Shown here: positions 2,244-12,044 of the stretch, piece after piece
How the letters are laid out: each line of letters starts with the position of its first letter
Numbering within the stretch: the first letter of the stretch is position 1
NCBI GenBank assembly: GCA_016706545.1
Contig: JADJJK010000031.1
Location: forward strand, 85,650 to 114,407
Reading direction: 5' to 3'
Origin: Myxococcales bacterium
Lineage (GTDB): Bacteria; Myxococcota_A; Polyangia; Haliangiales; Haliangiaceae
Length of the DNA stretch: 28,758 nucleotides
Notes under the pieces: generated by a model
The model's input: the letters and a program-made list of their open reading frames with translations, nothing else
The model's database searches: none
Told to the model about the DNA's origin: nothing
Made by a program: the position numbers and the translations under genes

Positions 2244-2506
2244 TCGCATCTCGTATTGCCAATCGTCTGCAAGATTGTTAATCTGTGCCGGCAATCAAAT
2301 GGCTATCTCTTCACGTCATAGTAAGGCCGCGCAGCTCACGCTCGAGTCCGCGCGCAAGCCCACCGGCCACGGCGGCTGGCGCCCCGGGGCTGTCGCCGCG
2401 TCGCGGTGGTCAGATTGCCTCAGTGGAACCGCTCGCCGCCATGGGGTAGTTCCGGATCTGACCGCCGCCTATGGCCCGGCGCGAGTCAACGAGAACTGCA
2501 AAACCG

Positions 2507-2533
2507 CCAATAGCTGTTCCCAGTTGCTATTGG
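2507..2533. promoter_or_regulatory. Inverted repeat CCAATAGC-N11-GCTATTGG in the 5' leader of the adenylation gene (candidate operator or RNA stem-loop)
   Basis: Perfect 8-bp arms, about 65 bp upstream of the ATG at 2599. Confidence 0.25.
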
Positions 2534-2598
2534 TGGTTCGCTGTGCGAACCTATCATCCGGGTACCGAATGGTCCCACAACTGTAGCGGCCGCCACGA

Positions 2599-4068
2599 AT
2601 GACTGAAGTCGAGATATCGACAATCGCTCTGATGGTTCGCGAGGCGCTCGATGGGCCTGACCGTCTGTTGGTCGAGGACGGATGGGGGCGATGGGGCCTA
2701 AGCACGTCTCAGACCCTTTCGCTTGCGGAGATGCTCATGGAGGTACTCGGGGACCGGGCCAGTCGACCTCTGGTGGCGTACCTGCAAAAGTCTCGACTCT
2801 ATTACGCATTCACCGCTTGCTGCTTCCTTAACCGCTTGAGTTACTGCCCGATCGATGCATCAAACCCGCTACAGAGGGTGCTCGATGTTGCTGCGCAGTT
2901 GCCAGACGCCATAATTGTCTGCGACAATGAGGAGGTCCTTGCTTCGATCTTGGAGCGAAAGATCGATGGCATCCGCATCAGCGAGGACTTTACCCGGGAA
3001 GATCGAGAGAACCGAGACGCGGTTGCAATGCCCGGGACGAAGAGTCCGCACTATTGTATCGCCACATCCGGTAGCACCGGTACACCGAAGTTGGTGCTGG
3101 TTCCGCATGATCACACGATTCCATTTGTGCGCTGGGCAGTACCCTTCTATAGAATCGGTCAAGGTTGCCGTTGGGCGCAATTCTCAAGCATCGGGTTCGA
3201 CCTTTCGCTCGTTGACTTCTTGTCTGTGGTGTGTGGCGGCGGGGTTCTCATTTCGCTTTCCTCTCAGCTCGACCGCATGCGTCCGGCGCTTGCGGTGAAA
3301 CGATGCCGTATTACCCACTGGCACTCCGTGCCGTCGATGATCCCGTACTTTCTCATCGATTCGGTAGGGGACGATCAGTCCACATGTCAGGTGTTCTCGT
3401 TCTGCGGTGAACCGCTTCAGCGAGCAAATGCAGACAAGCTCATGGCTCGATACCCTGGGGCAAGAATCGTAAATACATATGGTCCAACCGAAGGCACGCT
3501 GTTCTGCTCATTCTTCGAATATCGCCCCAATGACGAGACCGTGGTCGGAGACTTCGTCCCCATCGGACAACCGATACCACCGTGGAACTTCATCCTAATT
3601 CCCGAGGAGCGAGCGGAAAGGCTGGTGCTCATTGCCCCGAACATTGCCGACGGTTATGTCGGAACCGAATCCGCCGCGTTCGCCGCCGTCGATCTGTTTG
3701 GGTTCCGGCTACGCGCTTTCGACACGGGGGACAGGGTGAAGAGGCTTGGGCTACATCTCTATTTTTCACATCGAGTGGACACTATGGTGAAGGTGAATGG
3801 AAATCGCTTAGATCTCGCCGAGGTGGAGGCCGTTGCACAGCGCCTTGGTTTCACCAATCCGATGGCATTCGTGGTGGGAAGCGGAGTAACTTTGGTGGCC
3901 GAAGGAGAGCAAGACGCGGTGACGCTCCTGATCCAACAACTCGGTGAGCACCTGCCGCAGTATGGCGTTCCCAATGTTGTGCGAGTTGTTCCCGCGCACC
4001 CGCGCACCCCAAGCGGCAAGCTCGACCGGCGGGCCGTCCGAAAGTCGCTCGGAGAAAACAGTGAATAG
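2599..4068 (+). CDS. Stand-alone adenylation-domain enzyme (AMP-dependent synthetase/ligase; DltA or NRPS A-domain-like)
   Basis: Core motifs A3 TSGSTGTPKLV, A4 FDLS, A5 NTYGPTE, A7 FDTGDRV, A8 VKVNGNRLDLAEVE, A10 PSGKLDRRA. 489 aa. GC about 50%. Confidence 0.9.
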   Translation: MTEVEISTIALMVREALDGPDRLLVEDGWGRWGLSTSQTLSLAEMLMEVLGDRASRPLVAYLQKSRLYYAFTACCFLNRLSYCPIDASNPLQRVLDVAAQLPDAIIVCDNEEVLASILERKIDGIRISEDFTREDRENRDAVAMPGTKSPHYCIATSGSTGTPKLVLVPHDHTIPFVRWAVPFYRIGQGCRWAQFSSIGFDLSLVDFLSVVCGGGVLISLSSQLDRMRPALAVKRCRITHWHSVPSMIPYFLIDSVGDDQSTCQVFSFCGEPLQRANADKLMARYPGARIVNTYGPTEGTLFCSFFEYRPNDETVVGDFVPIGQPIPPWNFILIPEERAERLVLIAPNIADGYVGTESAAFAAVDLFGFRLRAFDTGDRVKRLGLHLYFSHRVDTMVKVNGNRLDLAEVEAVAQRLGFTNPMAFVVGSGVTLVAEGEQDAVTLLIQQLGEHLPQYGVPNVVRVVPAHPRTPSGKLDRRAVRKSLGENSE

Positions 4069-4321
4069 TGGCACATACGAAATCGCCCGCCGGCTAATTG
4101 CATCTGCGCTCGGCGCGCAGTTGGAGGCGATCGGTCCAACAACAGCCATCTATAAGATTCCGGAATGGGACAGCCTTGGTCAATTGAAGATCGTGGTGGC
4201 CTTGGAGAAGGCGCTCAACGTTAGAATTCTGGATGAAGTGACCTTCGAGTCCCTTGTGAATGTACGAAGAATCGCGGCGTATATCAATAATGTCAGAGCG
4301 GAAAATCACAATGGCAAATGA
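4061..4321 (+). CDS. Small acyl/peptidyl carrier protein (DltC-like), GTG start overlapping the adenylation gene stop by 8 nt
   Basis: Phosphopantetheine-attachment motif EWDSLGQLKIV. About 86 aa. GGAG Shine-Dalgarno 6 nt upstream of GTG 4061. The ORF-track entry 3944-4321 is the same frame with a spurious N-extension. Confidence 0.75.
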   Translation: MNSGTYEIARRLIASALGAQLEAIGPTTAIYKIPEWDSLGQLKIVVALEKALNVRILDEVTFESLVNVRRIAAYINNVRAENHNGK

Positions 4322-5090
4322 GGTAAATTTCGAGGCGGCGGACGGACATGTGGTCCGTGGAACCCATACCCAGGCGCATGCGGAGCGGGGGATGGTCCTG
4401 CTCGTCCACGGCATCACCGCCGATCGCCATGAATGGAGTTTCTTCGACTTTCTAGCAGCGGAACTGCTGGGTCAGGGCTTCAGCTCACTCGCCATTGACT
4501 ACCGAGGGCACGGGGCGTCTTCGATCCCTATTTCGGAATTGAGTCTCGCGGGTGTTGTGCTCGATATCGCTGCGAGTTGGGAATACTGCCTCGAGCGCCG
4601 CCAGAATCCGTCGGCAATCAAGGTGATCGTGGGCAACAGCTTCGGTGGTGGTGCCTCACTCTTGTTCAGCTCATGGAGTGGAGAAATCGATCATGTTGTT
4701 GCCACATGCCCTGTTCTCTCATACGTCGACGACCTCGATCGTGTCAACAGAGCATGGCGGAGTGACCTCCCGACTGGTCGAATTCACTACGCGAGCAAGA
4801 GTCTTCCTTCTTCCATTGTTCCGCAAATGTACCTGTTCGATCTGATGCTGGCGCGGACGACGCGCAACGTGAATCTAACCATTTTCCACGGCACATCGGA
4901 CACCGATGTCCCCATTTTGGCGAGCGAGCAATTTATCGAGAGTCGAGGCAGTGGTAACCTCCACCGGCTCCTAGGAATGGACCATTCGTTCTCAGCACCC
5001 GAAGGAACCGAGAATCGCGCCGCGGTATCGCTTGAATTTCGAAGGCGCGCGGCTCGTGAAATTTCCACCTTTGTCGGAAGCCTCGGGTGA
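4311..5090 (+). CDS. Alpha/beta-hydrolase fold protein (thioesterase or acyl-transfer candidate); alternative in-frame starts at 4290 and 4260
   Basis: HG oxyanion motif (LLVHGITADRHEW), nucleophile elbow GNSFGG, and catalytic Asp/His candidates (TSDTDVP, MDHSF). The ATG at 4311 overlaps the carrier-protein stop (TGA 4319-4321). Confidence 0.8.
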   Translation: MANEVNFEAADGHVVRGTHTQAHAERGMVLLVHGITADRHEWSFFDFLAAELLGQGFSSLAIDYRGHGASSIPISELSLAGVVLDIAASWEYCLERRQNPSAIKVIVGNSFGGGASLLFSSWSGEIDHVVATCPVLSYVDDLDRVNRAWRSDLPTGRIHYASKSLPSSIVPQMYLFDLMLARTTRNVNLTIFHGTSDTDVPILASEQFIESRGSGNLHRLLGMDHSFSAPEGTENRAAVSLEFRRRAAREISTFVGSLG

Positions 5091-5695
5091 TGCTCACCAT
5101 TACCGAACCTCTTTTTCTTGCCGAACCTCGTAGTTGGCCCGAGTGGGACATCTCGCTCGGAGCCTTTGTGACTGTTGAAGCGAGTCCTGAAGCTCCCGTG
5201 AGAATCAGTCCCAGGTGCCGTGTAGGGCACCATGTCTACATTGGCTCGGCTGTAACGCTATGTAATGGAGTCCGACTTGACACCATGAGCTTTGTTGGCG
5301 CTCGAACGACAATCGGAGAGGGCTCCGCAGTTCACAGCGTGAAGGTATTCGAAGCAGTGACGATTGGTCGCAACACGTTTATTGGGGGAGATGTGTCTAA
5401 CTGGACCATCATCGGCGATGATGTGACCTTCATGGGGCGAATCGTGCATACCTATCGGAAGGCCGGAGGCAGGGATGACTGGGTGGGCGCAGGACCACAG
5501 CCATCGCCCCGGATTGGGGATAAGGCGATCATCGGTGAGAACGCGCTTCTTATCGGTGGCATTGATATTGGCCGCGGTGCGTACGTGTCGGCCGGGGAGG
5601 TCGTCAAGTACGATGTTCCCGCCGGGCACCTTGCGATCAACGGAGAACTCATTCCTCTCTCTGCCTTCCGCGGGTTCATCAAGAGTCGCGAGTAG
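5087..5695 (+). CDS. Hexapeptide-repeat (left-handed beta-helix) acyltransferase
   Basis: Repeated [LIV]-G-x-x-x-x hexads (VYIGSAVTLCNGVRLD, VFEAVTIGRNTFIGGDV, IGDKAIIGENALLIGGIDIGRGAYVSAG). ATGA start/stop overlap with the upstream gene. Confidence 0.8.
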   Translation: MMLTITEPLFLAEPRSWPEWDISLGAFVTVEASPEAPVRISPRCRVGHHVYIGSAVTLCNGVRLDTMSFVGARTTIGEGSAVHSVKVFEAVTIGRNTFIGGDVSNWTIIGDDVTFMGRIVHTYRKAGGRDDWVGAGPQPSPRIGDKAIIGENALLIGGIDIGRGAYVSAGEVVKYDVPAGHLAINGELIPLSAFRGFIKSRE

Positions 5696-5709
5696 GGCAC
5701 GAGGCCCGT

Positions 5710-6852
5710 ATGAAACTGCGAGTGTTCGTCAGCCATAGTTTTCATGCCGAGCACCACCTGCACGGCAAGCTTGATGGTTTTCGTAACTCTGTGGATGCTG
5801 CTCGGGTTGAGGTGCTGTCGCATGCCAAACTGGGGTTGCGGGATGTCTCAATTGATCTCCACTTTGAGGATACGGCGATTGGACAGTTGCTACCTGCGCG
5901 GACACGAATAGACATCGAATGCGCTGACATCTTCATAATCGATATTTCAGCCCGCACTGCGAACACATTTTTTGAACTCGGGTATGCTCGTGCTTTGGGT
6001 GTGGAAACAATTGTGATTCAACAACGCTCTATCCAAGAATCGATTCCGGCGAACGTGGCCGACCTTCTTGTCGGATTCTATGGGACCACAGATGAGCTAC
6101 GGCAGATTGTCGCGAGGCGACTCAGCGAGATTCTGGGAGATGTGGCGTCCTTGGGCGCGAGCCGACCGCGCGACCGATGTTTCTGGTTCGAACCGGATGT
6201 TAGAGAGGTGCATATCGTGTGTGGCAGCGAGCCTGAGGCGACGCGATTTGCCAACCGGGACTCCGACGACTACTTGCTTATCGACAACTTTGACGACCGC
6301 GATGCTCTCTTTGCGCTGAGCACCTTGCTGTCTCGCGCATACCCGAACGCGAACTTGGTCCGCCACACCTCGGCGAACCTGCCCCCGGACATCTACCACT
6401 CCAATCTGGTTCTTGTTGGTGGCCCTCTTACAAATCGTGTCGCCGCGGAGATGATGGCGGAACTTAACGTGAAAGTTAGATACCTTGATGGCGACGATGG
6501 CATTGAGTTTCAGGGGCCACGTGGGCTTGAGATCGTACGATCCCAGCGGGATGCGTCAGGTGTGATCGTTGCAGACGCAGGGTATTTTGGCCGTTTTCGG
6601 AACCCATTTGCGCGTCGGAACCGCATCATCATGTGCCAGGGATGCCATACATTCGGAACGCTCGCAGCGAGTGCCATCCTTGCGGACGACAATCAGGCGC
6701 AGGACAACGCACGCTACCTTGAGAAGCTTTCCGGTGTAGATGCCCGAGCAATCGCTCGAATAGAGTGCGTATTCTCAGTCCGAGTTCTCACTAACCGACG
6801 GGTACTGCCTGCAGCCGTCACCGAGCCCTTAACATTTGTACATGTTTCTTGA
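5710..6852 (+). CDS. Two-domain protein: N-terminal TIR/NDT-like (flavodoxin-fold) domain plus C-terminal Rossmann-like domain with SLOG/LOG-like glycine motifs
   Basis: N-terminal: VFVSHSF...DLHFEDTAIGQLL...ADIFIIDISARTANTFFELGYARALG, matching the TIR / nucleoside 2-deoxyribosyltransferase-like pattern with a conserved Glu. C-terminal: LVLVGGPLTN...IIMCQGCHTFGTLAASAIL resembles the LOG/SLOG GGxxG...PGGxGTxxE motifs. GAGG Shine-Dalgarno; 14-bp gap after the LbH gene. Domain calls are motif-level only. Confidence 0.65.
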   Translation: MKLRVFVSHSFHAEHHLHGKLDGFRNSVDAARVEVLSHAKLGLRDVSIDLHFEDTAIGQLLPARTRIDIECADIFIIDISARTANTFFELGYARALGVETIVIQQRSIQESIPANVADLLVGFYGTTDELRQIVARRLSEILGDVASLGASRPRDRCFWFEPDVREVHIVCGSEPEATRFANRDSDDYLLIDNFDDRDALFALSTLLSRAYPNANLVRHTSANLPPDIYHSNLVLVGGPLTNRVAAEMMAELNVKVRYLDGDDGIEFQGPRGLEIVRSQRDASGVIVADAGYFGRFRNPFARRNRIIMCQGCHTFGTLAASAILADDNQAQDNARYLEKLSGVDARAIARIECVFSVRVLTNRRVLPAAVTEPLTFVHVS

Positions 6853-7509
6853 CAGCCGATGACGGATTTCTTTTCGGAAGAAGAACGTAAGATATTCGTT
6901 GATGTCTTTCGCCATCGGGATGTAATGCTCAATCGAGCGTTCAGCGTCTGCAAGGAGTCCAATGTTCACGTGGTCAACGATGTATCCGCGAGTGTCAAGT
7001 GCATGTGTGAGGATGGCAATATCGATCGCCCAGTTATTCGGCAAGTCGACTAGTGCGAAATCGCATCGGTTAAACAGGTAGGTGCCGCTTAGAGGGAGAG
7101 GGATGGTGTCCCATTCCGGACGGTACAGCTGAAAGAATGGACGAACGACGAGGTTCGTTACCGGAAATGTGTCGTAGGGAGAGTGGAAGATCCCGCGCTT
7201 GAGTGCATGCTTGGGGCCAGTTCGGAGCAAGTCTACCCACTCAGTTTGCCAGTCCCTGATGTCCGCATCGGTCCGAAGCACCAGGTCCTCTCGAGCAGCG
7301 CTCATGCCGACCTTCATTGCGCAGCCGAGACCAACGTCAAGGCACTGAAGTACACGAGCCCCGGCTTCACTGGCCTGCTCAGCTGTGTGATCATCCGATG
7401 CGTTATCGACAACAATGACCTCGCTGACGAGCTTGCTGTCGAGCAAGCGCCGCACAACACTACCAACAGTCTCCTGCTCATTCCGGGCTGGCACTACAGC
7501 TGAAATCAT
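6829..7509 (-). CDS. Family-2 glycosyltransferase (GT-A fold; dolichyl-phosphate-sugar synthase-like)
   Basis: ISAVVPARNEQETVGSVV...EVIVVDNASDDHT...LRTDADI (DxD). GGAG Shine-Dalgarno before the ATG at 7509. 3' end converges with and overlaps the upstream gene by 24 bp. Confidence 0.85.
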   Translation of the reverse strand: MISAVVPARNEQETVGSVVRRLLDSKLVSEVIVVDNASDDHTAEQASEAGARVLQCLDVGLGCAMKVGMSAAREDLVLRTDADIRDWQTEWVDLLRTGPKHALKRGIFHSPYDTFPVTNLVVRPFFQLYRPEWDTIPLPLSGTYLFNRCDFALVDLPNNWAIDIAILTHALDTRGYIVDHVNIGLLADAERSIEHYIPMAKDINEYLTFFFRKEIRHRLSRNMYKC

Positions 7510-7891
7510 GAAATCTCCAGATACGAGGCGGGCACGTGAGACAGTGCGCAGGGTCTTGCGCTTGGAAGCTCAAGCGACTTCATCATGACAACCGGAATTC
7601 TCTCTAGCCGTAGGCGCCAGCTGTGCAGGCGCAGATCTTGCGGCTTCACTTGAATTTTGGCATGAGTTAGTTGTACTGGCATACGGTAAGCTCAGAAATT
7701 CGCTGTGGGAGAAACGAAAGTAGTGTCATGGAGGTTCCGCTACGAAAATCGACTCGGTCGCAACCGCCAAGCCTGGTTGCAGTTCAGACTGAGAGTGAGG
7801 TTCTTTCCTCCAATAGACTTGGCGAGTTTCGCGCGATCGTCACTGTCAAATCGTGCGGTGTGAGAGTGTTGTGATCGCCATCTTCGGCTCC

Positions 7892-8869
7892 CTAGATTCT
7901 CTTTTGCTCGACCAGCCTGCGGTAGTGCTCGCCCAGCAACGTCAGCTTGCAGGCCTTGCTTTCCATGGCCGCGTGCCACATGTGAGGCGCGTCAACGGGC
8001 ACGACTAGGTTTACTCGGTTGTACTTCTGGAGAATCGCAAAGACATGCGTGTGCTCAGGATTGGGTGGTGGCATCCCTGGCTTGCGCCCTTGCATCTCCG
8101 GCTCATACGTTGGGTCCAGTGAAAACCGATACCCCGGCGCTGGAAAGAACTCAGCAATACGTTGAAGCTCCGCAAGACTGATCGAGGGAATCGCCTTCCT
8201 GAGCGACACAAAGCTCTTAACGTTGGTCTTGAAGATGGGGCGCTGATCCCAAGGCCCAAGTGATTGATCAATGTGCGCGTATACACTTCCCGGCGTGATA
8301 TCTCCGACGAGATTGGCGGCACTTCCGACCAGAGCATCTGCAAATAGCGCTGTAAACACGCCGCTCCCATTGCGTTCGGACGCATATTGCTCTGACGTCG
8401 ACGCCGTAAGAATCGTAGTCCCTTCCTTGAGCTCGGCAGTCGAAACGGCTTGGCCTCCAGGACTTCCGGCAATCCCGGAGTGGCAGCTATCCAGCGCAAT
8501 GACCTTGTTCTTCGAGCGTGAGTTATTGGCCAAGATCAGGATCTCAGAGAGAGAGACGCCTTCATCGCCACGGCGAGAGTCGGAGGCCAGGAGGTAGCCG
8601 CCCGTTGCCTCAATGTGTCCGTGACCCGCAAAGTAGAGGAGAGCAATCTCGTCATCCGTCGAGAAAAGCTCCTCGATCGAGTCTTTCAGCTCCGCACGCG
8701 GAACCTGGTCGTTCGGGCTCGTACCCGTTAGCGGCTTTACGGCGAAGTTAACCGTGCCATCGGCGTTTCGTTCAAGCAGTGGCTTAATCGAGTGTGCGTC
8801 GTTGACACATCCGTGCAGCGGTGATGTGTGCTCGTAATAATCAATCCCGACGACCAGCGCTTTGCGCAT
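7892..8869 (-). CDS. Caspase-like peptidase (C14 / caspase-HetF-type p20 domain) with a ~90-aa C-terminal extension
   Basis: [10 protein letters not shown]...GCVNDA...LLYFAGHGH (catalytic His)...IALDSCHSG (catalytic Cys). Strong GGGAGGG Shine-Dalgarno. Lies 26 bp downstream of the TIR-like gene on the same strand. Confidence 0.85.
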
Positions 8870-8895
8870 TGTCCCTCCCTTGCTTACGTGCGTAT

Positions 8896-9282
8896 CTACA
8901 GCGACTTAATGAATGTTGCGATGTTGTCCCAGGTCCAATTAACGATCTTTATGCCGCTGAGTTCTGCCGGAAGACTAGTGGGGCGATTGTCCGCGGAGCA
9001 GTAGACACCAAGGAGCCTTCGCCCCTCGGCCTTGGCGCATGAGGCTTCCCACAGTGCGCCATCCCCCTTCGTTGTGTTCTTGCTAACGAGTACGATCACG
9101 CCATCGCACCCCTTGATGCGGGAACGACAATTTGTCTTCCACTTCTCGTCCCAGGGCTCCTTCACGGACATGTCCACGAACTCGAACGGCGTGCTTTCAT
9201 TCTTGGATTGTCCCACCAAGAAGTCCCGTGACGTCTTGTCCTCGATGGCGAACGCAATAAAGACCCGCTTCTTCCCGGACAT
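8896..9282 (-). CDS. Small stand-alone TIR-like domain protein (ThsB / DUF1863 / MTH538-type)
   Basis: [16 protein letters not shown]...[36 protein letters not shown] fits the TIR-like architecture (betaA VFISF, S-x-W-x-x-E helix, conserved Glu). 128 aa. AGGGAAG Shine-Dalgarno. Confidence 0.75.
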
Positions 9283-10420
9283 ACTGCTTCCCTTTCTTCG
9301 ATGCGCTAGATGGCGTGCTTCGGAACCGCGTCAACGATACTCTGAGTGTTTCAGGCGACCATTTCGCTGGCGACGTCTTGCACGGCTCGGGAGGCTCGCT
9401 CGTTCCCGCGTGGATGTATCCGGACGATCGGCTTGTCGTACGACATGGCGATCTCGCTCTCTTCCTGCATCCAGCCAGAGTGCGATGCATACACGCCAGA
9501 GAGCATTATTAACACGATGTGGACTGGCCGAGAGTGGCGGTCCAAGCCCGCGCGTAGCTGCGCGCCGGTCCCACCATGAAGTGGTCGTGTTGAGGGACCG
9601 AGAACTGGGCAGCATGCCGACACCGGAACGTCGCCAATGTGTCCTCGAACGGTGTCGTCCGCGGTGTCGAAGTCACCACTCGCAGTGAGGAACTCTGCCG
9701 AACGCACCTCAGGTAGACTCAGAATGTAGAACACTCCCGTAGACTCACTGGCAATCCCTCCGGGAGGGTTAGGTGCTGGGGGATTAAGCACTGGGAGTGT
9801 TCCGGCGAGCTGGCGATTCCAACAGTATCACGGGGGATGGCGCGTAGGGAGGTTGGGAAATTCGCTCGATCGTGATCACCCAAACCAGTCCATCGCGATC
9901 CACCGATGTGGTCCATCGCGATCAGTGGCCCGACCAGTAGGAGAGGAGAGTACTCGATGGCAGGATGATGTCCCTGGACCGCGGAGGGGAAGCCGCGAAA
10001 AGACGGAAGGAATCGAGCGAGAGACGACTGTTGTCCCGATGTTGGATCCCGAAGTCGTGAGGGCGCTTGGGGAGCCCTTTCCTCGGTGTAGGACAAGCTG
10101 TCACCACCGGCCTCCGAGGGTCCCATTTCCACCGCCATCACCGGTGACCTGGGGCCTACCCGATGGGAGCCATCTCGGTGTGGTCGCGAGACGGGGTCAA
10201 GGGTCGCTCCGACGACGAGCGCAGCGAGCTTGCCCTTGAGGCCGGCGCGCGACCGCACCACTCTCGCCGGTGGGGGTGGGCCCCTGGTCCCGGTGGTTCT
10301 GCTACCCTCGATCGTCGGCGGCGACAACAAGCCGCGGCGTAAGTCTGCGTGATCTCGTCGACCTTCAAATCCATACGGATTTGAGCTGCCGTCTACAGTG
10401 ACGACTAACCGTTAGGGGCG

Positions 10421-11875
10421 CTAGCGCGCGCTCATAGGTAGGATCTTAGGACCGGCCTCCGAGGAGGACCGGCCGGGAGATCCCGGGGGGATCGACAAGC
10501 GACAACGACAGCCTTCACCCTGCGGTTACCACACCCAGCACACGGAGACTGCGTTGTCTACCCCGCACCTTACCAGGATGCGGACGGCGCTCGCACGCGC
10601 GCTGTCCGCCGATGATGTCAACCAGCTCGGCCGTGACACCGGCCAGAGCGAGAGGCTGCGAACGGTCACGCCGCACCGCCTGTTCCTCTCGACCGTCGCC
10701 GCGCTCGCCGGTGGGAAGGTCGAGTCCCTCGCGGACCTCCTCCGCGAGTTCAATCATCAGAACCAGGTCACCGTCGCCTACAAGGCGTTCTACAACCGCC
10801 TCGCTCGACCCGGCTTCGCGAGCTTCATGCAGCAGATGTTCGCGCGGCTCGTCGAGAGGGGGGGGGCTGAGCGTCCGGATGCTCGAGCCCGAGGGGCACG
10901 CCGCCGTTGCTCGATTCAAGGACATCGTGATCCAGGACGGCTCTTCGTTCGCGCTCAAGAAGACGCTGCAGCACGTGTTTTCGGGACGGTTCACGAACCG
11001 CGAGCCAGCCGCGGTCGAGGTCCACGCGACCTACAGCGGATTCTCCGACGAGGTGTCCACGGTCTCGATCGCTTCGGACAGCGAGGCTGAGCGCCAGTTC
11101 CTACCCGCGCCGTCGACGCTGGCTGGGCGCCTGCTTCTTGCAGATCGTGGCTATCCCAGCACGCAGTACTTCGACGCGGTTCGCGCCCACGGTGGGAGCT
11201 TCATCGTGCGGCTCAGCCGAAGCCACGACCCGTGGGTGTCGGCCGCGTGGGTGCAGGGCAAGCAGGTGCTGCTGAGAAAGCCGACGCGGCTGTCGCGGTT
11301 CATCGAGCGGAACTCCAATCGCCGGATGGATCTCGACGTCGAGTACGAGAGAGGAAAGGACGTATTGCGCTTCCGCGTCATTGTTCTGCCCGGCCGGGAA
11401 GCGACGATGACCCGGCTCTGCACGAACCTTCCGCGCACACCGTTCTCCCTCGACCTCGTGTCGCGGCTGTACCGCTTCAGGTGGCAGATCGAGCTGCTCT
11501 TCAAGGAATGGAAATCCTACGCGAACCTCCACAAGTTCAACACCGCCAACGAACACATCGCCGCGGGCCTGATCTGGGCCAGCCTCTGCGCCGCCGTGCT
11601 CAAGCGCTTCTTGGCTCACGCCGCTGAGCTCGTCGGCGGCAGGGCAATGTCTACCCGACGCGTGGCGATGTGCGCCGCCCACATCATCGACGAACTGGCG
11701 GCCGCGCTCCTCGCCTGCATCAGCATCGCGGCCGCGTTCAGCGACGGCCTGGCGTTCCTCCTGGCCAACGCCCGCCGCTCGAACCCTGTCCGCGACCGCA
11801 AGACCGGGCGCCTACGGGCCGGCCTGGTCACCGTCGGGGCCCGTTCCTAAGTGATCGCCTATGAGCGCGCGCTAG
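10421..11875 (+). mobile_element. IS4-family insertion sequence (about 1.45 kb) with ~30-bp imperfect terminal inverted repeats
   Basis: Left end CTAGCGCGCGCTCATAGG...CTTAGG (10421-10450). Right end CCTAAG...CCTATGAGCGCGCGCTAG (11846-11875); the 18-bp core is a perfect reverse complement. Encodes a DDE transposase. No clear target-site duplication is visible. Confidence 0.85.
10554..11850 (+). pseudogene. IS4-family DDE transposase split by a +1 frame change in a G9 homopolymer (10858-10866)
   Basis: N-terminal part in frame 0 (10554..~10866). The remainder is in frame +1 (..11850) with LLLADRGYPSTQYF...SFIVRLSRS and RWQIELLFKEWKSYANL (YREK region). Removing one G joins the two into a ~430-aa transposase. 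Confidence 0.8.
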
Positions 11876-12044
11876 CGGCCGCGGCTGCCAGGCCCATTCG
11901 TCGGAGCTGCGCGTCCGTGTGCTGGCCACCGGACTGGCCACGTATCCCGACGTGACCGTGGTCTGCCAGCGCGCAGAGTAGGCGCGCGGTCGCGACAGGC
12001 GGTCGCAACGCTGAGAGTCACCGGGACAGTGATAGCGTGACGCC

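Follow-up and report, generated by a model that had tools for sequence, protein, structure and literature searches.

We analyzed a 28,758-nucleotide stretch of DNA from a Myxococcales bacterium (contig JADJJK010000031.1; hereafter the window, with positions counted from its first letter) that carries adjoining genes for an adenylation enzyme (A), a carrier protein (CP), an alpha/beta-hydrolase (ABH), a hexapeptide acyltransferase (LbH), a two-domain protein that we call X and a glycosyltransferase (GT). The best explanation for the five plus-strand genes and the convergent GT gene is a single module of six genes that spreads by horizontal transfer and is housed in islands of anti-phage defense genes. 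This cassette, whose enzymes come from known families, is a candidate for a new kind of system. Regarding its function, we tentatively propose that the cassette makes a tailored small molecule that is aminoacylated, glycosylated and derived from a nucleotide, and that through X it takes the place of the TIR protein ThsB.

The window comes from a genome with a GC content of ~72%, and its composition profile places an island of ~55% GC at ~2500-9800. The island and the six genes are laid out as follows:

2500..9800, no strand: low-GC island (~55% versus ~72% GC in the flanks), carrying the cassette, its GT gene and the caspase and TIR genes described below
2599..4068, plus strand: A, adenylation enzyme (Pfam AMP-binding)
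4061..4321, plus strand: CP, carrier protein of 86 residues; GTG start, 8-nt overlap with A
4311..5090, plus strand: ABH, alpha/beta-hydrolase; ATG start, 11-nt overlap with CP
5087..5695, plus strand: LbH, hexapeptide acyltransferase; GTG start at 5087 with a 4-nt overlap with ABH, or an alternative ATG at 5090 with a 1-nt overlap
5710..6852, plus strand: X, 380 residues; ATG start, 14-nt gap after LbH with GAGG at 5700-5703
6829..7509, minus strand: GT, soluble GT-A glycosyltransferase; convergent with X, 24-nt overlap of the 3' ends

A check of open reading frames (ORFs) and junctions returned the genes of 2599-6852, with their overlaps of 8, 11 and 4 nt and the 14-nt GAGG gap, just as an original prediction made from the letters of the window had described them. 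The public annotation of this metagenome-assembled genome (MAG) gives LbH as a protein of 112 residues (P0038, IPI49_22165); the full ORF of 201-202 residues is kept in all homologues, which indicates that the deposited LbH gene model is truncated. An Rfam search of the window found no riboswitch or other RNA family, and promoter and terminator scans gave nothing above background.

The gene set recurs in 13 independent contexts, namely the window, L001, L003, L005, L006, L007, L008, L009, L012, L013, L014, L090 and L092. A, ABH, LbH and X occur together in all 13, or as many of them as the contig covers; CP was detected or called in 10 of the 12 full-length contexts, and a GT is present in all but one (L012, where no GT was recognized near the cassette). 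Hosts include Kordiimonas (L001), a Solirubrobacterales MAG (L003), Micromonospora (L009), Pelagimonas (L012), a member of the Caulobacteraceae (L013) and one of the Rhodobacteraceae (L014), and further cassettes lie on metagenomic contigs (L005, L006, L007, L008 and L095-L099), giving a spread over Myxococcota, Alphaproteobacteria, Actinomycetota and metagenomes. A diverged lineage represented by L090 and L092 keeps the set in the permuted order GT-ABH-LbH-X'-A-CP, with an X that is 27% identical. Integrases, resolvases and a type IV secretion coupling protein or relaxase are the mobile genes found at other loci, and the window has an IS4-type element. We found no match to the cassette in a plasmid collection, and viral contigs contained only fragments of the X N-terminal domain and no cassette. 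The proposal that the five plus-strand genes form one unit is thus upheld by the joint recurrence of A, ABH, LbH and X. Homologues from the X subfamily adjoin adenylation genes, and mostly carrier genes as well, whenever enough flanking DNA is available; X homologues that never sit beside such genes, the outcome that would have spoken against functional coupling, were not what the neighborhoods contained.

Enzymes of the cassette

A matches Pfam AMP-binding with an E-value of 4e-29 and, at scores below their cut-offs, TIGR01733 (1e-59) and DltA-type models (1e-44 to 1e-46, 150-157 bits versus cut-offs of 476-560). The best matches in the PDB are LgrA A2 and DltA, the latter at 5e-37, and on this basis A is assigned as a stand-alone adenylation enzyme of the DltA or nonribosomal peptide synthetase A-domain type. 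LgrA module 2, which is among the closest solved relatives of A, is Gly-activating. The predicted ten-residue specificity code of A is DLVHSCTLFK and is identical in 9 of 12 cassettes, including permuted ones; the reference positions were taken from a GrsA-PheA sequence, which reproduced the known code DAWTIAAICK. Equivalents of Asp235 and Lys517 are present in A and thereby indicate an alpha-amino acid substrate, and the conserved pocket code suggests that the same single amino acid is activated across the family. CP matches PP-binding (2e-5) and, weakly, acyl carrier protein models. Its phosphopantetheine-attachment Ser lies in a WDSL motif, of which WDS is invariant in 10 homologues (motif invariance for CP, ABH and LbH was judged over 10-12 diverse cassettes).

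ABH scores at ~1e-12 with Hydrolase_4 and Abhydrolase_1/6, and its neighbors in the PDB are cinnamoyl esterases and monoacylglycerol lipases. A Ser-Asp-His triad (G-x-S-x-G, D-x-DVP and a His) is invariant in 12 homologues, and from these sequence features we assign ABH as an alpha/beta-hydrolase of the esterase or acyl-transfer type. LbH matches Hexapep at 4e-12, its nearest NCBIfam models being LpxD, NeuD/PglB/VioB and GlmU, all below cut-off. LbH is the most conserved protein of the cassette, with a His/Arg motif that is invariant across diverse cassettes. These Pfam assignments (AMP-binding, PP-binding, Hydrolase_4/Abhydrolase and Hexapep) agree with the identities originally predicted for A, CP, ABH and LbH.

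The GT of the window matches Glycos_transf_2 (1e-12), the GpgS model below its cut-off (4e-29) and GpgS/MpgS structures in the PDB (2e-14), and so resembles soluble glycosyltransferases of the glucosyl-3-phosphoglycerate-synthase type that act on small molecules. The original prediction had named it as a nearby gene. The comparison of contexts shows that it is not an incidental neighbor: a soluble GT of small-molecule type is a conserved sixth component. Orthologues that are 48-55% identical occupy the same position in L001, L006, L007 and L095, where the tail-to-tail layout with X is also kept (overlap or a gap of ≤ ~10 nt). In these contexts, as in the window, the GT is GpgS-like GT-A, and elsewhere it is GT4 (Pfam Glycos_transf_1; L003, L005, L008 and L014), of the mannosylglycerate-synthase type (MGS_GT; L009, L096 and L097), GT8-like (L090) or GT2-like (L013). 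The retention of a GT despite replacement among unrelated GT families suggests that the module cannot do without glycosyl transfer. None of the six cassette proteins has a transmembrane (TM) segment; together with the small acceptors used by relatives of the GT (GpgS, MpgS and MGS), this points to intracellular small-molecule chemistry. Judged by their motifs and their lack of TM segments, the cassette enzymes look active and cytoplasmic.

The two domains of protein X

The AlphaFold model of X is confident, with a pLDDT of 84 over the whole length; the C-terminal domain alone reaches 88.7. Residues 1-150 adopt a flavodoxin-like TIR/NDT fold in which Glu89, part of a YELGYA motif after strand 3, is invariant. 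Over this predicted catalytic Glu the best profile matches are DNPH1, NDT and MilB at marginal E-values of 0.02-0.05, and the X family profile aligns Glu89 with the catalytic Glu of DNPH1/Rcl at a likewise marginal 0.024. In addition, the FVSHSF..H motif and the Glu helix of X align with a ThsB TIR protein (hhalign E-value 3.9e-5). X scores 14.3 bits with Nuc_deoxyrib_tr (cut-off 28.8) and 13.8 bits with a YtoQ-type model (cut-off 23.2), and reaches no curated threshold of TIR_2, ThsB_TIR or Nuc_deoxyrib_tr. Based on fold, invariant Glu89 and ThsB homology, the N-terminal domain is classed as a ThsB-like member of the TIR/NDT superfamily that belongs to no named family, so that the original designation of this half as TIR/NDT-like is right at the superfamily level. 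Plain NDT membership is unsettled: the fold and the Glu fit, but the scores are below threshold and the N-terminal motif is ThsB-like. MilB/BlsM and DNPH1/Rcl are the best structural and profile matches for residues 1-150, with a catalytic Glu within YELG, whereas X misses the Pfam cut-offs, has a ThsB/TIR-like FVSHS[FW] motif and carries an extra domain of 230 residues. An identical copy of X is on record from a Myxococcales MAG.

The extra domain, residues ~152-380, is a conserved alpha/beta domain for which there is no Pfam model. Its invariant polar and glycine motifs are DxRD, GGP..N, D.GYFG.F.NP and G.HTFGT. This half had originally been called LOG/SLOG-like, a call that we rejected when fold comparison gave no LOG/DprA-like Rossmannoid match. 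By fold the domain is none of SLOG, STING, SAVED, CARF or Macro, and a BFVD fold search with it returned nothing. A HMMER scan of 1.84 billion representatives found the domain in 508 clusters (at 50% identity; proteins P0049-P0194 are among the representatives). We tallied the attached domains in 120 of these clusters. The partners were a CAP12/Pycsar-type TIR in 16 clusters, an NDT-like domain in 13, TIR_2 in 5, a helix-turn-helix (HTH) domain in 4, a CHAT protease in 3 and a PNP_UDP phosphorylase in 2; a calcineurin-like phosphoesterase (Metallophos), EAD5, Mrr_N and a winged-helix regulator were also found attached. A constant domain that is recombined with nucleotide-degrading, proteolytic and DNA-binding outputs has the signature of an input or sensor module, and the pattern suggests that the C-terminal domain of X is a sensor module of conflict systems. 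In one member of the domain family the partner is a hexapeptide-repeat domain, which may be a fusion of LbH and X genes.

The arrangement of X recalls ThsA (SIR2-SLOG), Cap12 (TIR-STING), PycTIR and TIR-SAVED proteins: a domain that cleaves nucleotides is joined to a constant one, which in relatives of X is recombined with PNP, CHAT, Metallophos and HTH outputs. It differs from them in that the constant domain of X has another fold and that no nucleotide cyclase is linked to it. Only a small subfamily of X is tied to A, CP, ABH, LbH and GT; the distant two-domain relatives L034 and L062 are stand-alone genes without a cassette.

Defense genes beside the cassette and other features of the window

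Known or candidate defense genes lie within a few kb of the cassette in at least 8 contexts. The window itself contains the following features on the high-coordinate side of the GT gene:

7892..8869, minus strand: caspase-like protease (Peptidase_C14) of 325 residues, with ~140 extra C-terminal residues
8896..9282, minus strand: short ThsB-type TIR protein of 128 residues, 27 nt upstream of the caspase gene
9318..9791, minus strand: second ThsB-like TIR gene, probably a remnant (ORF 9351-9791; the similarity passes a stop codon and continues to 9318)
10416..11880: IS4-type element with inverted repeats at 10416-10477 and 11819-11880 and a transposase ORF at 10612-11850

The caspase matches Peptidase_C14 (6e-16) and the PADLOC caspase model (6e-19); with the model for EACC1-type caspases it scored below cut-off and was not assigned there. 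Homologues of the caspase adjoin the cassette in L003 (64% identical), L005 (46%) and L090 (~44%). The short TIR protein matches ThsB_TIR (5e-7) and PADLOC ThsB (6e-7) and is 46-56% identical to the TIR proteins of the same three contexts, so that a TIR and caspase pair adjoins the cassette in four contexts, including the window. In L090 the pair is on the same strand as the cassette GT gene and ~500 nt upstream of it, with a second TIR gene in between. Both L005 and L090 have two intact TIR genes with the caspase gene. The second TIR gene of the window matches ThsB_TIR (9e-4) in its C-terminal part only; a tblastn search with the ThsB proteins of L104-L106 gave 30-34% identity to residues 47-139 at 9596-9318 (E-values of 3e-11 to 4e-14). 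The N-terminal FVSHSW part was not found in the 9318-9791 remnant, the similarity being confined to the C-terminal two-thirds.

In type IV Thoeris the TIR protein makes N7-cADPR, a cyclic ADP-ribose (cADPR) isomer, and a caspase-like protease is the effector (bioRxiv 10.1101/2024.10.24.620036); the names ThsB and ThsE follow bioRxiv 10.64898/2025.12.03.692087. The segment 7892-9282 of the window has this architecture, a short TIR gene directly upstream of a gene for a C-terminally extended caspase-like protease. The two genes therefore fit a type-IV-Thoeris-like pair that, by analogy, may signal through N7-cADPR and protect against phages. This changes the status of the TIR gene, which had been taken as a separate stand-alone gene: it pairs with the caspase gene, and the pair recurs beside the cassette.

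A different neighbor, the membrane protein 8xMP (PF24838), flanks the cassette in L001, L006, L012 and L014, and no ThsB gene was detectable beside it in these four contexts. Homologues that are 50-64% identical to the L014 copy directly follow ThsB_TIR in all three other contexts inspected (L104, L105 and L106), which makes it likely, from gene neighborhood, that 8xMP is a Thoeris-type membrane effector. There ThsB_TIR and 8xMP form an overlapping two-gene operon (L104 7570-8465, L105 7591-8462 and L106 3207-3940), and in L105 this operon adjoins a type IV-like TIR-caspase-TIR operon and McrBC. In the contexts seen, 8xMP and the TIR and caspase pair are mutually exclusive. Other defense neighbors of the cassette are Gabija-like OLD and UvrD genes (L006), PD-Lambda-5 and a NotI-like nuclease (L012), IetAS (L013), and PD-T4-5/Abi_2 and PIN/PhD genes in L092 and L005.

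Several features of these loci and of the window deserve separate mention. A minus-strand cluster beside the cassette of L007 (8850-17974) encodes a NUDIX protein, an unknown gene product, an HpaB-like monooxygenase, a cytidylate-kinase-like protein, a TIR_2-PRK fusion and a phosphoribosyltransferase, followed by a very large TIR-WD40 protein, and may be another nucleotide-centered conflict locus. In L005 a gene for a 158-residue protein (6027-6503) overlaps the end of the caspase gene and has a weak DprA/SLOG-type match (DNA_processg_A, 0.004); it may provide the Thoeris-like operon with an additional component that binds the signal. The inverted repeats of the IS4-family element in the window, which lies just past the high-coordinate edge of the island, are 62 nt long and 74% complementary. 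At the other end, the space from a sigma-54-type activator gene to the low-GC island is taken up by a tandem repeat at 1517-2209, whose 253-bp unit is present in 2.7 copies that are 91% identical and which contains inverted repeats. It may be a scar left by integration, a repeat element or an array with a regulatory role. The activator gene (65-1447, directly upstream of the repeat array) encodes FHA, sigma-54-interaction AAA+ and HTH domains and belongs to the high-GC host backbone; nothing ties the activator to the island.

Possible product and role of the cassette

We compared the cassette with known systems. Among the nearest comparisons are type IV Thoeris (bioRxiv 10.1101/2024.10.24.620036) and the Thoeris types that combine a TIR protein with a membrane effector (bioRxiv 10.64898/2025.12.03.692087). 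The cassette resembles Thoeris in the ThsB-like TIR-superfamily domain of X with its catalytic Glu, and in that it adjoins candidate Thoeris effectors (the caspase here, 8xMP elsewhere) in defense islands and mobile elements. It differs in that no Thoeris type has an adenylation enzyme, CP, LbH, ABH or GT, that the X C-terminal domain is not described for ThsB, and that the known Thoeris signals (cADPR isomers, His-ADPR and N7-cADPR) are made by the TIR protein alone. With the Dlt system (DltA-DltC-DltB-DltD) the cassette may share a stand-alone A of DltA type, with FxFCGE where DltA has its Cys, and it has a small dedicated CP that is translationally coupled to A. Unlike Dlt, the cassette encodes soluble proteins throughout, A and CP are accompanied by LbH, ABH, GT and a TIR-like protein, and DltA models score far below their cut-offs; the membrane MBOAT protein DltB and DltD are absent in all 13 contexts.

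Further parallels concern mechanism. In aminocoumarin biosynthesis (CloN4/N5/N7 and CouN7) an adenylation enzyme, a carrier protein and an acyltransferase of the alpha/beta-hydrolase type serve to acylate a sugar hydroxyl, and the LbH enzymes LpxA/LpxD transfer an acyl group from its carrier protein to a nucleotide-sugar. The likeness is confined to mechanism: we found no close sequence relationship, and the cassette is located in a defense island rather than in an antibiotic or lipid A locus. The mycothiol and bacillithiol pathways likewise use a retaining GT4 followed by amino-acid ligation to give a soluble cytoplasmic aminoacyl-glycoside. They differ in that ligation is by MshC/BshC instead of A/CP/LbH, and the cassette has no LmbE-type deacetylase and is mobile and defense-linked, not housekeeping. 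Of the features of peptidyl-nucleoside clusters (blasticidin/mildiomycin type), only a hydrolase-like fold and a GT are present. A surface-glycan locus does not fit either, as the cassette proteins have no TM segment and the GT is soluble and GpgS/MpgS-like. PADLOC gave no match to A, CP, ABH, LbH, GT or 8xMP, and we found no equivalent of the cassette in PADLOC, Pfam, NCBIfam or the literature searched; term searches within PMC7159879, 10.64898/2025.12.03.692087 and PMC13069673 found no description of it. The original impression that no described system matches the cassette is therefore borne out, and the cassette is neither a Dlt system nor any type of Thoeris, CBASS or Pycsar described so far, nor a recognizable nucleoside-antibiotic cluster.

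We propose the following route. A would load one alpha-amino acid onto CP, giving an activated aminoacyl thioester, while the GT would make a small soluble glycoside. ABH and/or LbH would then transfer to this glycoside, at a hydroxyl or amine, either the aminoacyl group or an acetyl cap; ABH-type enzymes such as CloN7/CouN7 can pass an acyl group to a sugar hydroxyl, and LbH enzymes can either act on nucleotide-sugars with acyl-carrier donors, like LpxA/LpxD, or N-acetylate. X would supply or process the part that derives from a nucleotide, such as an ADP-ribosyl or ribosyl group from NAD or a nucleotide, by Glu-dependent N-glycosidase or transferase chemistry, and its C-terminal domain would be the trigger or ligand sensor. 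The product would serve as an immune signal for neighboring Thoeris-type effectors, the caspase-like protease in the window and 8xMP in other genomes, so that the module would play a ThsB-like signal-generating role. The link to ThsB comes from the orphan 8xMP genes: as 8xMP follows ThsB elsewhere and stands beside the cassette with no ThsB gene, the simplest explanation is that the cassette, via X, replaces ThsB as the producer of the activating molecule, which it may make in tailored form. A more specific form of this proposal, in which the A/CP pathway, the GT and X build an aminoacylated, glycosylated messenger of ADP-ribose type or otherwise derived from a nucleotide that activates the caspase-like protease or 8xMP, we consider doubtful. 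Either form lies in the direction that we tentatively favor, that of an aminoacyl-nucleotide signal or toxin, which was one of the two readings originally offered.

Several points count against the cassette being a ThsB-like signal producer. Every biochemical step is inferred. Five of the 13 contexts have neither 8xMP nor the TIR and caspase pair (some of these contigs are short), and all four caspase contexts hold ThsB TIR proteins of their own, so the pair could simply be a neighboring defense system like Gabija or IetAS. Close homologues of 8xMP presumably sense plain ThsB products that have undergone no tailoring, the non-cassette contexts of 8xMP that we inspected number three, and the copies that adjoin the cassette have diverged in L001, L006 and L012. 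The stand-alone relatives L034 and L062 also conserve the core of the C-terminal domain at the residue level, and thus the ligand of this domain need not be the cassette product. To our knowledge, a pathway of five enzymes with ATP-dependent carrier chemistry is unprecedented for an immune signal, and there is no sign that infection triggers synthesis.

Two rival explanations do without a separate effector. The cassette may be a self-contained weapon, that is, a biosynthetic cluster for an aminoacylated toxin of glycosyl or nucleoside type with anti-phage or inter-bacterial activity, which seems unlikely to us. Here the N-terminal domain of X would release a base or sugar-phosphate in the manner of the CMP hydrolases MilB/BlsM; the GT would attach a sugar to the released part, and the amino acid would be put on by A/CP together with ABH/LbH. 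Peptidyl-nucleoside pathways do combine an NDT-type hydrolase, a GT and aminoacylation, and such a weapon would accord with the DNPH1, NDT and MilB matches over the catalytic Glu, the near-constant GT, the conserved A code and the cassettes that have no candidate effector (L007, L009 and L092). It is hard to reconcile with the lack of an exporter, resistance gene, aminotransferase, radical-SAM or ATP-grasp enzyme in any context, with the ThsB-type FVSHS[FW] motif of X, and with a C-terminal domain whose other carriers are immune-type proteins (TIR, PNP and CHAT) instead of enzymes of biosynthesis. Moreover, the GpgS/GT81, MGS/GT78, GT4 and GT8 families are retaining according to CAZy, while formation of a beta-nucleoside needs inversion. 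Alternatively, X itself could be the effector, an abortive-infection protein that depletes NAD or nucleotides and is gated by a labile aminoacyl-glycoside bound to its C-terminal domain, although we would put this a shade lower still. The five enzymes would make the ligand and the esterase would turn it over, the ligand holding X off or on; shutdown by a phage of the ATP, amino-acid or UDP-sugar supply would shift the ligand level and cause X to fire. This would account for the fusion of the C-terminal domain to classical effector domains, among them the CAP12/Pycsar-type NADase TIR, for X being the sole invariant non-biosynthetic partner, for the ~5 contexts that have no other effectors, and for a biosynthetic set with a hydrolase, which suits a metabolite of fast turnover. 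Yet this gating is wholly inferential, stand-alone relatives of X work without a cassette, the orphan 8xMP genes would go unexplained, and we know of no defense system that is restrained by a small-molecule pathway of its own.

The second reading originally offered, N-acylation of a polysaccharide, corresponds to modification of the envelope: aminoacylation or acylation of a surface-glycan sugar (O-antigen, a teichoic-acid-like polymer or capsule) that masks phage receptors, comparable to D-alanylation by Dlt or to prophage seroconversion. Mobile elements often carry seroconversion genes, A and CP are DltA/DltC-like, relatives of LbH include the sugar N-acetyltransferases NeuD, PglB and VioB, and a GT is nearly always at hand. 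We nevertheless regard this reading as highly improbable. 8xMP aside, none of the contexts has a membrane protein, flippase, polymerase, MBOAT/DltB or DltD inside the cassette or beside it, the conserved GTs are of the soluble small-molecule type and the cassette proteins lack TM segments, the cassette occurs in diderm Proteobacteria and Myxococcota as well as in monoderm Actinomycetota, whose envelopes differ, and the invariant TIR-like X would have no explanation. That an ordinary acyl-carrier operon merely happens to lie beside an unrelated TIR-like gene could be argued from the general frequency of A/CP genes in myxobacteria. We rejected such a chance juxtaposition, the likelihood of which we put close to nil: the same translationally coupled gene set is found in 13 independent contexts, and the LbH and X families are tiny and of matched size (~25 and 23 members among 5.8e9 clustered proteins).

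Known bacterial immune signals, such as cyclic oligonucleotides, cADPR isomers and His-ADPR, are made in one step by a cyclase or TIR protein. Against this background the cassette would point to a new class of tailored immune messengers or to a new small-molecule (chemical) anti-phage defense; if the doubtful ADP-ribose-type messenger form should be true, it would add a new class to the chemistry of immune signals and also a new route by which such a signal is generated. Independently of the product, the analysis defines a widespread unannotated domain, present in ~500 clusters and sensor-like for TIR, PNP, CHAT and HTH outputs, and flags 8xMP as a likely Thoeris-type membrane effector.

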